This document shows positions 5,969 through 61,901 of a stretch of 64,000 nucleotides of DNA, one piece after another (the stretch's first letter is position 1; each line of letters opens with the position of its first letter). The stretch is from a virus. The translations under genes were made by a program, and so were the position numbers. The stretch lies in IMG/VR virus record IMGVR_UViG_3300032516_000005; one strand, 5' to 3'. Below the pieces are notes generated by a model that worked only from the letters and a program-made list of their open reading frames with translations, had not been told where the DNA came from and did not search any database.

Positions 5969-6136
5969 ATGTTCGGTCGACGCATTCCAACCCCCGTACG
6001 TCAAGCAAGTCCGCGCCCCGGCGCGAACACCAATTGCTGCGTGCGGACGGTGCCGGGTCAACAGCCCGCGCAACGTCCAGTGCAGCAGCCGACGCAGCGT
6101 CCAGTGCAGCGTCCGAACCCCTACGTCAAGCGCTAA
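5969..6136 (+). CDS. 55-aa Pro/Gln/Arg-rich peptide MFGRRIPT...YVKR (not in the ORF track)
   Basis: Translated by hand; ATG lies 6 nt after TAGCAT, downstream of palindrome 5925-5940. Confidence 0.6.
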   Translation: MFGRRIPTPVRQASPRPGANTNCCVRTVPGQQPAQRPVQQPTQRPVQRPNPYVKR

Positions 6137-6154
6137 GCGCAACAGGAGACCAGC

Positions 6155-6466
6155 ATGCTCGGTTACACACTCGGCAAGAACGGCAAGAGCGGCAAGGGCA
6201 AGCCCAAGAAGAAGTCCACCACCTGTCGCCAGGGCATCGTCAAATTCAAGACGAAGCGCGGCAAGGTCATCTCGTTCAAGGGCAAGACTGGCCCCGGTTG
6301 CGGTCCCCGCCCCAAGCCGAAGACAGGCCACCTCGCGCCCTACAAGAGCGCGATGGCACGCGCAGCGACGGCTTGCAAAGGCCTCAAGAAGGATCAATTC
6401 CAGAGCTGTGTCGCCAGCGCAATGCATGGCAAGGCGCTGGGCAGGCGTCGTCGGACACGCGGATAG
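6155..6466 (+). CDS. small highly basic protein, putative DNA-condensing core protein
   Basis: AGGAG SD; Lys/Arg-rich; starts MLGYTLG, ends ALGRRRRTRG. Confidence 0.8.
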   Translation: MLGYTLGKNGKSGKGKPKKKSTTCRQGIVKFKTKRGKVISFKGKTGPGCGPRPKPKTGHLAPYKSAMARAATACKGLKKDQFQSCVASAMHGKALGRRRRTRG

Positions 6467-6477
6467 TACGAGCCCGC

Positions 6478-6687
6478 GTGGATCTTCTTCAAACTCTCAT
6501 CGAACGCTGGGGCTTCCCAGCTGCCTTTGCCGTATGGCTCATGATGGGGGTCACGCGAGATTTGCGTGAGATCCGCGCGCTCATCCACAAGCAGGTGATC
6601 TTGAACGCCGTGATCTTGAAAACCCTCGACATCCCAGAGGCGGTCACACTCACTGCGAGTGTCATCCCCGAGGATAAGGCAGGCTAG
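6478..6687 (+). CDS. small membrane protein, holin-like
   Basis: LIERWGFPAAFAVWLMM single TM plus amphipathic tail, resembling BhlA-type holins. Confidence 0.55.
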   Translation: MDLLQTLIERWGFPAAFAVWLMMGVTRDLREIRALIHKQVILNAVILKTLDIPEAVTLTASVIPEDKAG

Positions 6688-6688
6688 C

Positions 6689-58639: not shown

Positions 58640-58655
58640 GCGATAGACTCGGCGC

Positions 58656-60515
58656 ATGCGTGCAGCCATCCTTGAAACCTACGACGACGTCACAGGTGCA
58701 GCTCCTGGGCTGTATATCGTTCGGTCGGACGCAGACGCGTACTTTCCCGCGCTGGCTCAGATCGAAGCAGGAGAAGCGAAGTTCCGTGGTGAGTCGTATG
58801 ACGACGCCGGTCGCAAGATGGTCGTGTTTTCTATCGTCCCACATCCCGCACATGGCGGATTTGGTGCGCTGGGTGTCGACCCCGGCCTTCGTCAGATGGA
58901 TCTCGATCCCGCGTACTTCCTGACAGTGTTGAAGGAGTACAAGGATTGGCAGATCAAGTGGTGGCGTGAAGGTGCGCAGAACAGCGTCGATGCGGGTGCG
59001 CAGAGTGTCGCTTTCACAGCCGAGCAAAACAGCGACGGTACCTGGACGTGCGTCGTCGAAGATAACGGCTCCGGTATGACCGAGGAGATCCTCGTCACCA
59101 AATTTCTTCGCCTGGGGGCAACAACAAAAGTCGGTGCAGAAGGCGTCGCAGGCGGCTTCGGTAAGGCCAAGGAGCTACTGCTCCTGCCGTGGATTGGCTG
59201 GCGCGTCCATACGCGCAACATCATCGCGGAAGGCGCGGGCAATCAGTACAGCTTGCAGGAAGCGCCGTACTTTCAAGGTACGCGGCTCGAAGTCATCATG
59301 CCCGCGGATCAGCACACCGACACTGCTTCGGCGATTGCCTTCATCGAGCGTAGTTACCTGCCGCAGGTTCATTTCACCGTGAACGGCGAAACTTGCGACG
59401 CGGCGCTGATCGGCGACAATCCCGTTGGCAGCCTTCCAGGGAAGGTCGACTTCTTCTTCACTCCTCGGATGGGCGTGTCGAACTACTGCATGTTTGTACG
59501 GACACGTGGTTTGTATATGTTCGATCTCTACGTCGGGAAGATCCCCGGCTACTTGCTCGTTGAGCTGACGGCACCGTCGATCGAGATCTTGACGGCCAAC
59601 CGCGATGGGTTCCGCGACTCCGACGTCAAACGGGCGGTGGAACGTCTGGCTGAGAAGATCGCAAAGGACAACATCTCGGCGCTCAAGAGCCAGCGCGGCC
59701 TCATCCGCCAGAAGTTCTCGGGGACGGGTAAGTTTCGTGCGAAGCAACTCGCTGCCGAAATGCTCGAACAGATCGGTCCGACGAGCGAAACCATTTCATC
59801 GAGCACCGTAGAAACCCTCATGGCGGTGCTCCATGACCGTGAAGTGCTTACGCGGCGAGGGGCGTCGTCGGCGTCGTCGTCGTTACCGTCGACCGCAACT
59901 GCACAGGTGCTTCTCGATCAGGTATTCACCGGACCGAATCATATCGAAGCTGCGATCAAGCAGCTCGTGTGGGAACCCGACTTCTACATCATCAACGACA
60001 TCGAAAACTTCAAAGTCCCTGCGAGGTTCTTCCCCGCGACACTGTCCCCGCGCGTGCTAAAGCTCGCCAAAACGTGGGTTGAGCTAGTTCGTTACGTGAT
60101 GATGCAACTCGGCACCACGCGTGAGTTCGGTGTCGGCTGGGTGTTCTCGACAGATATGGCGGCCGCCGCCGCGACCACAGGCACCTATGAAGCGGCTGAT
60201 TGGGGCATCTCACCAGGAGAAAGCTGGATCCTCTTGAACCCGTTCCGCAACATGCACAGCGGCGAGATCTGGCGACCCACGAACAACGCGGACCTCAAGT
60301 GGCTTTACGCGGCTGCCGTCCATGAGTGTACGCACATCGCCGACGGAATTTCGTATCACGACGAGAGCTTCGCGCGAGCGCTGACGTACAACGTCGCCAA
60401 AACCGCTGACGGCTACCGTAAGATTCGCAAAATCGTCGCGGGGATCAAGATGGCGGGCGGTGCCGATCTCGGCGGGTACGACGACGATGACTACGACTAC
60501 GACTACGCCGACTGA
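58656..60515 (+). CDS. GHKL ATPase with C-terminal HExxH zincin domain
   Basis: REGAQNSVDAGA, DNGSGM, GATTK, GGFG; VHECTH...HDE.F. Confidence 0.88.
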   Translation: MRAAILETYDDVTGAAPGLYIVRSDADAYFPALAQIEAGEAKFRGESYDDAGRKMVVFSIVPHPAHGGFGALGVDPGLRQMDLDPAYFLTVLKEYKDWQIKWWREGAQNSVDAGAQSVAFTAEQNSDGTWTCVVEDNGSGMTEEILVTKFLRLGATTKVGAEGVAGGFGKAKELLLLPWIGWRVHTRNIIAEGAGNQYSLQEAPYFQGTRLEVIMPADQHTDTASAIAFIERSYLPQVHFTVNGETCDAALIGDNPVGSLPGKVDFFFTPRMGVSNYCMFVRTRGLYMFDLYVGKIPGYLLVELTAPSIEILTANRDGFRDSDVKRAVERLAEKIAKDNISALKSQRGLIRQKFSGTGKFRAKQLAAEMLEQIGPTSETISSSTVETLMAVLHDREVLTRRGASSASSSLPSTATAQVLLDQVFTGPNHIEAAIKQLVWEPDFYIINDIENFKVPARFFPATLSPRVLKLAKTWVELVRYVMMQLGTTREFGVGWVFSTDMAAAAATTGTYEAADWGISPGESWILLNPFRNMHSGEIWRPTNNADLKWLYAAAVHECTHIADGISYHDESFARALTYNVAKTADGYRKIRKIVAGIKMAGGADLGGYDDDDYDYDYAD

Positions 60516-60517
60516 CG

Positions 60518-60895
60518 CTACCGGCGCTTGCGGCGCCCGGCGCCTGCCAACGGGCTCGCTGGCTTGGTGTCGGTCGTGAACACCGTGACCAGCTCACCTC
60601 CACCGGGTGTCGACCGCCGGCTGATCGCGCTGTCATGACCGCGCTTCTTGAGCTTTGCTGCGATCGTTGCAGGCGTCTGGATGTTGCCCATCACCGAGAA
60701 GTCTTCTAGCCATTCAGCCGGCGTGACTTCGAGCGGCTTCTTGAGACAGAGGCTGAACTTTGACGTGGGACCGTACGTCTTGGCGAACATCTCGTTGCTG
60801 ATGAAGTAGCTCGGGCCGCTGGGCGGGCCGGGAACTCGCGCGCCGCGGTACATCGGTTCGAGTACCAATGCGCAGGCCTTCGTCTTCGGTGGCAT
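60518..60895 (-). CDS. ADP-ribosyltransferase-like small protein with basic tail
   Basis: MYRG...SYF....A..YG...L..PL...GHDS; ends LAGAGRRKRR. Confidence 0.6.
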   Translation of the reverse strand: MPPKTKACALVLEPMYRGARVPGPPSGPSYFISNEMFAKTYGPTSKFSLCLKKPLEVTPAEWLEDFSVMGNIQTPATIAAKLKKRGHDSAISRRSTPGGGELVTVFTTDTKPASPLAGAGRRKRR

Positions 60896-60953
60896 GCCCA
60901 ACGCTATCACGCTGCCAATCGAGCCGCATCGGTGACGTGAAAGCGCGACTGCA

Positions 60954-61901
60954 TCAAGCAACCCGCCGCTTGCGAAAGTGCCGCACACCCAGCGCGGTAC
61001 CGCCAATGGCGACGGCGCCAATCACGAGCCAGCCGATGAACGGAAACGCGCGCTTTGGCGGTTCGCGCTTCGTCTCGCGCTGACCGGCACGACACTGCTC
61101 CATGAGCTTGATACGGTTTTCGACCGTGTCCTGGTTCGCAGGAAGATCGCGCAGTGCTTTATTGATGCACCCATTGAGCGCTTCCTGTGCTTTCGCCTCC
61201 TGTTCGCCGATGACGATCTGCATTTCGCGCAGGAGGCCATCTCTGTCTGCCCCCGTGAACACTCTCAGGATGTCCTTGGTGTCGGACAACAACAGGTGCG
61301 TGCCACCGATCACGATGATCGCACCAATGGTGCAACCGAGAAATGCCCACGGTCCGGCAAGGCAGAGCGCTGCAACGCCGTTCAATCCCGCGCGCTGACG
61401 TTCGATGTCCGTTGGGCATACGCGTCCACCGGGCCCGGAGATCTTCAGGCCCTTCATGTCGATACGGCCGGAGCCGTCAGGTAGACATTTCAGGTCAGCC
61501 TTGATGAACTCGGTACCTGTCTGCGGATCGAACCGCACGCCTGCGTCATGCGCGAACAGCGGCGGGAACGGTGGATCTGCAGGGAGGTTCGGCGCGCCCG
61601 CTTTGCGCAGTGCTTCAGAGACACCGCCCACACGAAGTTTTTCGAGGAAGAGGCTCTGCAACTCGAACAGCTTGATCGATTGGCTGTTGAAGTTTTGAAC
61701 TTCAGCGCAGTTCGCGACCCCGAGGACGATCTGGTGCAAGATCGCGTTGTGCCACCGGAGGACCGACGCTTCGGACTCGACCATCCACGCCAGGAATTGG
61801 TCGACGAAGGTCTTGACCTCTTCCGGCGAACTGAAGGCAGAGACTTGACCGAGTGTCCGCTGGCCAAAGGTGGCGTGGCCGGTCCAGGTAGTCGTGAGCA
61901 T
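60954..61901 (-). CDS. membrane protein with two TMs and basic tail
   Basis: MLTTTWTGHATFGQRTLG leader; C-terminal TM plus RHFRKRR. Confidence 0.8.
   Translation of the reverse strand: MLTTTWTGHATFGQRTLGQVSAFSSPEEVKTFVDQFLAWMVESEASVLRWHNAILHQIVLGVANCAEVQNFNSQSIKLFELQSLFLEKLRVGGVSEALRKAGAPNLPADPPFPPLFAHDAGVRFDPQTGTEFIKADLKCLPDGSGRIDMKGLKISGPGGRVCPTDIERQRAGLNGVAALCLAGPWAFLGCTIGAIIVIGGTHLLLSDTKDILRVFTGADRDGLLREMQIVIGEQEAKAQEALNGCINKALRDLPANQDTVENRIKLMEQCRAGQRETKREPPKRAFPFIGWLVIGAVAIGGTALGVRHFRKRRVA

Follow-up and report, generated by a model that had tools for sequence, protein, structure and literature searches.

Can a dipeptide as plain as Phe-Gly or Leu-Gly mark the places where the proteins of a phage are cut? 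The question is raised by a 64,000-nucleotide stretch of viral DNA (IMG/VR record IMGVR_UViG_3300032516_000005), here called the window, which derives from an uncultivated high-GC phage of ~200 kb. The window has a GC content of 62% and short, tightly packed genes, and no tRNA was found in it. An original prediction, made from the window's sequence, held that Phe or Leu followed by Gly ([F/L]G) forms a processing and packaging code on proteins encoded behind a shared palindrome. We found that a narrower [F/L]G junction motif in some palindrome-linked proteins is real and conserved. As a broad code the claim was overstated, because most of the 208 [FL]G dipeptides in the window are background and a minority make up a real motif class. 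We further take as the likeliest reading, though a little short of an even chance, that [F/L]G is the site at which a C39-type peptidase of this phage clade processes co-regulated proteins, itself included. This reading draws on the P1-Gly chemistry of C39 enzymes, the motif's presence at the enzyme's own boundaries, junctions shared by unrelated domains and the existence of leaderless paralogues.

The window belongs to a metagenome-only phage clade with genomes of roughly 170-240 kb. No near relative was present among the 50,697 deposited phages of INPHARED, and syntenic genes were recovered from three IMG/VR contigs, G001 (95 kb), G002 (196 kb) and G003 (221 kb, rated 100% complete), at 45-89% amino-acid identity. 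Further metagenome contigs (L039, L041 and L043) cover the 1-20 kb part of the window. Conservation was judged over six related contigs in all (45-95% amino-acid identity) together with wider homologues. A self-trained codon model called 114 genes in the window, which form its test set of 19,060 amino acids (aa), and 817 in G001, G002 and G003; clade statistics use all four genomes (931 proteins, 587 families).

Some palindrome-linked genes carry a conserved [F/L]G junction

The palindrome, GATCGC-N4-GCGATC, is present in the window as 14 exact and 10 one-mismatch copies. At up to two mismatches there are 57 matches against 12 expected, and at up to one mismatch G002 holds 80 copies and G003 holds 65. 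Start codons lie 14-36 nt downstream of the palindrome; those at 10545 and 12254 both follow at 21 nt. A TGnTAnnnT-like box lies 3' of the palindrome, and the ATG comes only ~5-8 nt past this box, a gap so short as to suggest that the mRNAs of this regulon have little or no leader. The N-termini encoded by these genes are distinctive as well. Across the four genomes, 28% of palindrome-linked genes start with Met-Leu (ML) compared with 7% of others (P = 5e-8), and their second codon is Leu in 28% of cases, mostly CTC.

All 18 open reading frames (ORFs) cited in the original prediction were translated, and every quoted [F/L]G string was present at or adjoining its coordinates. Homologues kept the motif at about eight of the cited sites and lacked it at about five; a further seven or so had no homologue for comparison. 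The palindrome-linked membrane protein family fam16 (10545-11477) conserves both its leader, MLVSSYVNGFG (10545-10577), and a P-A-[LFY]-G-R-x-R-R tail that follows the transmembrane (TM) helix (11412-11432). Among 10 homologues at 36-86% identity, M1, V7, G9, F10, G11 and G293 are invariant and conservation is 90% or higher at L2, Y6, N8, P290 and A291, against a mean column identity of 56%. The 57-aa gene at 5969-6142 shares its M[FL]GRR start and its stop with six relatives (7/7 sequences); it was overlooked by the codon-bias caller and by codon-position GC statistics, and looks real by conservation. In all seven aligned sequences, the leader of its neighbour at 6155 reads M[LF]..x[LF]G-A-R, and basic residues come next. 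Tails are retained in two further proteins: G[FL]G-R in the product of 18233 (4/4 sequences), and [GA]LG-RRRR in that of 44277 (2/2), whose single orthologue ends ALG-RRRRKRR. The start of the 11481 protein is kept as well, as M..[FL]GESAN.

Paralogous families add a positional argument. Three adjacent paralogues, at 12254, 12732 and 12995, share a glycine-zipper module. The first (12254-12730) begins with a DUF5661 domain, continues through RRGHNFG (12467-12487) and then enters the module; the second (12732-12995) reaches the module directly from MKRRRQLG; and the third (12995-13213) starts it immediately after a Met that occupies the junction position. The claim that the motif coincides with the initiator Met in this family thus held, and orthologues behave likewise: the basic-[QN]-[LF]-G junction of the first two members is kept in G002, G003, L039, L041 and L043. 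A second family, marked by DFNCN..VDGFIGD (8450-10501), has leaders of the ML[FIV]..G[FL]G type, and its leaderless members begin near the junction.

Other cited sites did not survive comparison. The C-terminal ALG-RRRR of the 6155 protein was not conserved in the seven-sequence alignment, nor was the MFG start at 9926 or the ALG-RDDDY tail of 9170 (9848-9868) in relatives. The supposed internal joins of the 19842-20615 protein fall in a TM helix and in the core of a GDSL domain, and neither is conserved. In addition, the 'tails' listed at 11477, 18910 and 9922 sit 14-22 residues before the stop codon, not at the extreme end.

Enrichment appears across four genomes, not in the window alone

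Counted within the window, the motif is inconspicuous. The 208 [FL]G dipeptides compare with 180 expected from composition. There is no N-terminal excess (9 in the first 10 residues, 11.3 expected); the last 20 residues contain 33 compared with 23.8 expected (P = 0.04, uncorrected, from 14 tests), and [FL]G is followed by a basic run five times compared with 2.7 expected (P = 0.14). Averaged over 125 orthologue pairs, [FL]G conservation was 0.44-0.48, equal to that of [IV]G, [DE]G and [RK]G. Taken alone, this window-level composition test would have wrongly dismissed the motif.

Pooling the four genomes gave a different picture. [FL]G falls within the first 20 residues of 26% of palindrome-linked proteins and 16% of others (P = 0.015), and counting by family widens the difference to 29% vs 15% (P = 0.007). 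G[FL]G within the first 25 residues is found in 11% and 2%, respectively (P = 2e-4). The control dipeptides [IV]G, [AS]G, [TP]G and [DE]G, as well as G[IV]G, do not differ between palindrome-linked and other genes. The expected enrichment near the N-termini of palindrome-preceded genes is therefore present at the level of the clade and absent from the window by itself. Similarly, [FL]G does mark module boundaries in a conserved subset of palindrome-linked proteins, but it is not general: the motif class accounts for roughly 10-15% of these genes and <10% of basic tails.

Some polybasic tags adjoin the motif at both termini

C-terminal polybasic tails, mostly of Arg, occur in 83/587 families, and basic residues are enriched ~2-fold over the last 4-10 residues. 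Many come after a TM helix; others terminate small soluble proteins. [FL]G stands directly before the tail in 7/83 families, with ~0.9 expected (binomial P = 4e-5; P = 2e-3 under a lenient null). At the other terminus, an N-terminal polybasic run is followed by [FL]G within five residues in 6/28 families, compared with 0-2 for nine control classes (P = 1e-3). The association of the motif with basic tags is thus borne out at both ends of proteins; that with acidic tags fared less well, as the acidic tail of 9170 is not conserved. Within the tails, Arg is encoded by a mixture of synonymous codons, and we therefore attribute the tails to selection on protein and not to a DNA repeat. A DNA-level origin, by triplet-repeat slippage or by overlap of palindromes with the tails, was ruled out by these mixed codons and by the absence of a shared DNA motif. 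Acidic Asp/Tyr- or Asp-rich ends also follow LG in unrelated proteins (window 9848-9922 and 60465-60515; G003 92734-93396). They read RDDDYDYDDY and GYDDDDYDYDY in the window and WGDDDDFGDDDLGNDDLG in G003, and are not kept between orthologues.

Might these patterns be chance, sharpened by post hoc selection in a Gly-, Leu- and Arg-rich proteome? With 8.4% G, 8.0% L, 3.4% F and 7.6% R, the window yields one [FL]G per ~90 residues, and the negative window-only tests, the roughly five cited sites that are not conserved and the placement of the 19842-20615 sites within a TM helix or enzyme core all fit this explanation. It does not account for the absence of the effects among equally abundant control dipeptides, for family-level binomial P values of 4e-5 to 2e-3, or for a motif that is near-invariant in distant homologues. 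We regard chance as very unlikely for the conserved subset, where it is largely refuted, and as the right answer for many of the listed sites.

The tails themselves suggest a second alternative, that the motif belongs to a targeting or binding signal that is never cleaved. A polybasic stretch with Phe or Leu would bind membrane, DNA or an assembly site, and ML..G[FL]G would be a retained export or assembly signal. The sheer frequency of polybasic tails and the ~2-fold basic enrichment at C-termini are in keeping with this idea, as are the many motif proteins in which a TM helix precedes a basic tail; several proteins moreover carry a peptidoglycan-binding-like VDGFIGD (recognized by eye; Pfam gave no match) and have no Sec-type signal peptide. 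The partner that such a signal requires is hypothetical, however, no ABC exporter (ABC_tran) scored above cut-off in the relatives, and the DUF5661 junctions and the leaderless paralogues that start exactly after the motif would go unexplained. On balance, an uncleaved signal appears decidedly unlikely.

Large relatives encode a C39 peptidase with the motif at its own boundaries

The original prediction recognized no protease in the window. This is correct, as no protease gene was found there, and a candidate is present in the three large relatives. G001, G002 and G003 each encode a Peptidase_C39 protein (PF03412; 53.6-61.3 bits compared with a cut-off of 22) and also a transglutaminase-core protein, both outside the region equivalent to the window. 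The C39 homologues carry PF03412 and PF13529. The protein is a stand-alone chain of ~190-210 aa, in which a linker joins the catalytic domain to a TM helix and RRRR forms the tail. An alignment of 37 sequences shows invariant Q8/Q9, C15, H99 and D115, which align with the QI..DCG, H and DP motifs of the ComA peptidase (PEP) domain (3K8U); the profile also matches LahT150 (6MPZ) and PCAT1 (4RY2). Sequence and catalytic residues place the relatives' enzyme in family C39. Metagenomes contain at least 55 close homologues, on contigs of 91-241 kb, and INPHARED holds a single weak match, in a 595-kb uncultured phage. An exact-pattern scan of metagenome and viral contigs for the C39 gene of the window's own genome returned no match, and a near-identical JGI contig stops short of where the gene would be expected.

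Several features tie this enzyme to the motif class. Its gene in G002 is itself palindrome-linked. The protein opens with a leader, ML..x[LF]G, that ends three residues before a conserved PYQQ in ~50/58 sequences, and the linker, otherwise variable, keeps PKRK..Q[LF]G ahead of the TM helix, its Gly conserved at 90% or more. Two homologues (P0035 and P0038) replace the short leader with DUF5661, joined through ..A[LF]G-DVEPYQQ. The window's own DUF5661 protein at 12254 is joined through ..NFG-DAAC to the glycine-zipper module (Pfam). DUF5661 (PF18905) thus behaves as a portable N-terminal module, with either a glycine-zipper or a C39 partner.

Weighing cleavage against an uncleaved junction

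C39 peptidases remove N-terminal leaders, cutting after Gly at P1. In the explanation that we favour, many of the clade's genes are transcribed from the palindrome and an extended -10 box, with hardly any transcript ahead of the start codon. A minority of their products carry the motif exactly where modules join: it closes short N-terminal leaders (ML..G[FL]G or M[LF]..[LF]G-AR), follows polybasic tags at the N-terminus (MKRRRQLG), precedes Arg-rich tails at the C-terminus (PA[LF]G-RRR, G[FL]G-R or GLG-RRRRR), or links a DUF5661 module to the next domain. A membrane-anchored C39 would then cut after P1 Gly, taking Phe or Leu in place of Gly at P2, and strip leaders or tags from co-regulated proteins including itself. 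We infer from sequence both that C39 cuts at the motif and that the tags matter before cleavage; protein processing in these phages seems plausible. Packaging by basic tags and the existence of 'mini-polyproteins', both part of the original prediction, are speculation, and only the architecture of DUF5661 with a variable partner hints at the latter.

A number of points weigh against cleavage by C39. Cleavage at the [FL]G sites is so far a prediction. Known C39 enzymes need Gly (or Ala/Ser) at P2, and a bulky Phe or Leu would require an altered S2 pocket. The protease is confirmed in the relatives only and not on the window's own contig. Its leaders run down to MSLG in length, and LG-x-V-x-PYQQ in the protease family could be a mere part of the fold. 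Should the predicted TM helices obey the positive-inside rule, the catalytic domain would face one side of the membrane and the C-terminal [FL]G-RRR tails the other, and C-terminal sites may therefore not be substrates. The ML start, in turn, may reflect constraints on leaderless mRNAs. Lastly, the statistics are sobering: the window by itself has no significant [FL]G enrichment, the clade-wide excess is modest (~10 extra genes among 94 palindrome-linked), and >90% of polybasic tails lack the motif.

Some of these points suit an alternative in which the motif is structural punctuation. A buried Phe or Leu with a Gly that forms a helix C-cap or hinge would end a folded module without being cut, and the C39 peptidase would serve some other purpose, for instance maturing one specific peptide or acting in lysis or host manipulation. 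Gly is preferred at helix C-caps, and the residue before polybasic tails is most often Gly (28/126) and next Ala (23/126), as expected of generic linker or cap residues. LG-x-V-x-PYQQ is kept even with just 2-3 residues ahead of it, and overall [FL]G conservation is the same as that of other XG dipeptides. What a cap leaves unexplained is the specificity for F/L-G over I/V-G and A/S-G near tags and at palindrome-linked N-termini, a single junction that joins DUF5661 to two unrelated domains, and the retention of Q[LF]G in the variable, low-complexity linker of the protease. We rate this alternative as unlikely.

If cleavage by C39 at [F/L]G is true, this would be the first case of a phage processing its proteins with a double-glycine peptidase, and the known specificity of the C39 family would widen. 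Mature termini could then be predicted from sequence across a large metagenomic phage clade in which structural genes otherwise escape recognition, and the Arg-rich tails, unusually frequent as they are, would gain a function. Even without cleavage, the motif and the palindrome regulon mark a set of co-regulated proteins. A more ambitious version casts the [F/L]G-specific, membrane-anchored C39 as the maturation protease of a widespread clade that lacks recognizable HK97 capsid and prohead-protease genes. It would strip both ML..G[FL]G leaders and polybasic tags, the latter with a transient role in targeting or packaging, from itself and from palindrome-controlled late proteins made from leaderless transcripts, as a counterpart in bacterial viruses to adenovirus-type maturation. 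We think this version unlikely.

Comparison with known processing systems

The closest parallel is double-glycine processing by C39 domains (ComA PEP, LahT150 and PCAT1), with which the clade's enzyme shares PF03412, the Gln/Cys/His/Asp residues and putative leaders ending in Gly. The differences are considerable. The relatives' enzyme, of ~200 aa, stands alone instead of forming part of an ABC exporter, and closes with a TM helix and RRRR. At the conserved sites F/L occupies P2 and G occupies P1, in place of GG, GA or GS, and the leaders span 4-20 aa without the hydrophobic -4/-7/-12 pattern of double-glycine leaders, which measure 15-30 aa. The putative substrates are proteins of 60-300 aa instead of bacteriocin-type peptides, and the enzyme is phage-encoded. 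A full-text literature search turned up no paper that describes a role for C39 peptidases in the maturation of phages.

The original prediction invoked the maturation proteases of eukaryotic viruses. Adenain, poxvirus I7L and African swine fever virus (ASFV) pS273R cut a number of structural or core proteins, among them basic proteins associated with DNA. The likeness is conceptual, a cysteine protease cutting after Gly-containing motifs, with cleavage in the present case being a proposal. Those enzymes belong to clan CE and C39 to clan CA; their motifs are (M/I/L)XGG-X, AG-X and GG-X, and homology is not expected.

Among phages, prohead-type systems use one protease to remove the N-terminal sequences of packaged proteins and to process itself too. 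The prohead proteases (T4 gp21/S77, HK97-type S78 and phiKZ gp175) resemble the proposed system in the idea of shared short N-terminal targeting sequences, but are serine proteases that cut after Glu-type motifs. Prp (C108) cleaves the N-terminal extension of ribosomal protein L27, which is copied by the capsid and scaffold proteins of Staphylococcus phage 80alpha. That system shares with the present one a short conserved ML.. leader on several phage proteins and a dedicated cysteine protease, and differs in that Prp is host-encoded, its motif ends in FA followed by S/A, and it is known only in Firmicutes-type hosts.

Sites without a clear homologue

The remaining cited sites lie in proteins for which the relatives offer little or no comparison (Table 1). 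The 87-aa protein at 41235-41498 and the site at 56668 have no homologue in the relatives, and the ORF at 41809-42141, rejected by the codon-bias caller and likewise without a homologue, remains unsupported. The 574-aa protein at 49568, whose AQGLG follows a Lys/Ala coiled stretch, has no orthologue there, and its C-terminal module has no stand-alone counterpart among them. The same is true of the GHKL protein and its N-terminal extension. The codon-bias caller also rejected the ORF at 56432, which has no homology beyond its start; it looks real given its palindrome and a palindrome-linked G002 gene at 68743 that starts MARKRKRKALG. Lastly, the leader of the 60954-61901 protein resembles that of G002 177339 (MLVASSGTFGRLQLGQV). 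Homology to the MLVASSGTFGRLQLGQV family was considered and rejected, as overall similarity was not significant.

Table 1 Coordinates and strands of the palindromes, motif-bearing genes and polybasic tails in the window.
Feature	Coordinates	Strand	Details
Exact palindrome	5925..5940	.	16-nt GATCGC-N4-GCGATC
Other palindrome copies	8387, 10508, 12217, 18187, 41531, 42158, 44701, 47357, 51308, 56400, 58624, 61919
57-aa Pro/Arg/Gln-rich gene	5969..6142	+	MFGRR start; NCCVR motif
Very basic 103-aa protein	6155..6466	+	Leader MLGYTLG (6155-6175); tail ALG-RRRR (6434-6454)
Three paralogues	8450-9166, 9170-9922, 9926-10501	+	DFNCN..ICYGIG..VDGFIGD domain and C-terminal TM helix
Membrane protein fam16, palindrome-linked	10545..11477	+	Start 21 nt after palindrome 10508
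Protein starting MIVAQFGESAN	11481..11927	+	Family consensus M[ILF][IV]A[QHN]..[FL]GESAN
Three paralogues	12254..13213	+	Cys..glycine-zipper..PEC module (alignments, Pfam)
Membrane protein, palindrome-linked	18233..18910	+	Tail G-[FL]-G-R (18842-18856), then Arg-rich C-terminus
87-aa protein, palindrome-linked	41235..41498	-	Starts MKRRQLG
DUF7447 protein (Pfam)	44277..44684	-	Ends GLG-RRRRR (44280-44303)
574-aa protein, phrog_2319 match	49568..51292	-	MWFG start; AQGLG (49802-49816)
Weakly coding ORF	56432..56665	+	Starts MKRKRKALG; 16 nt after exact palindrome 56400
GHKL ATPase-like protein	58656..60515	+	GFGALG (58857-58874); tail DLG-GYDDDDYDYDY (60465-60485)
Membrane protein, palindrome-linked	60954..61901	-	Starts MLTTTWTGHATFGQRTLGQV
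Polybasic-tail examples	6466, 11927, 24040, 41545, 42462, 44277, 52268, 56422, 60518, 60954

Gene content of the clade

Pfam searches of G001, G002 and G003 gave no match to the S78 prohead protease (PF04586; controls positive) or to the HK97 capsid (PF05065); none was obtained for S77 (PF03420) either, a search in which the control also matched nowhere. A PHROG scan of 30/36 G003 proteins of at least 330 aa found no capsid or portal protein, and returned one weak tail-fibre-like and one weak terminase-like match. The latter (189878-191599) has an FtsK/HerA-like look.

The window's PHROG and Pfam matches are phage-like and include a tyrosine integrase, a GHKL ATPase, an EEP nuclease and a von Willebrand factor A (vWA) protein. 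The most conserved protein of the region (3082-3618, + strand; 77-89% identity in relatives) has no Pfam match and no phage match. Its AlphaFold2 model is all-beta, but a mean pLDDT of 48.6 makes it unfit for a fold search. The protein at 4861-5841 has no match in INPHARED. Positions 3-1124 (+ strand) encode the C-terminal part of a 783-aa vWA-domain protein (phrog_2426) with very strong codon bias and ~33% identity to Ackermannviridae-type phage proteins (LIMEstone and phiA8-29). Two paralogous tyrosine-recombinase-like genes (24019-24903 and 52887-53849, both on the - strand) are kept in the relatives. G003 encodes, at 185080-188769 (L013), a family A DNA polymerase with a LAGLIDADG homing-endonuclease-like insert at residues ~217-393.

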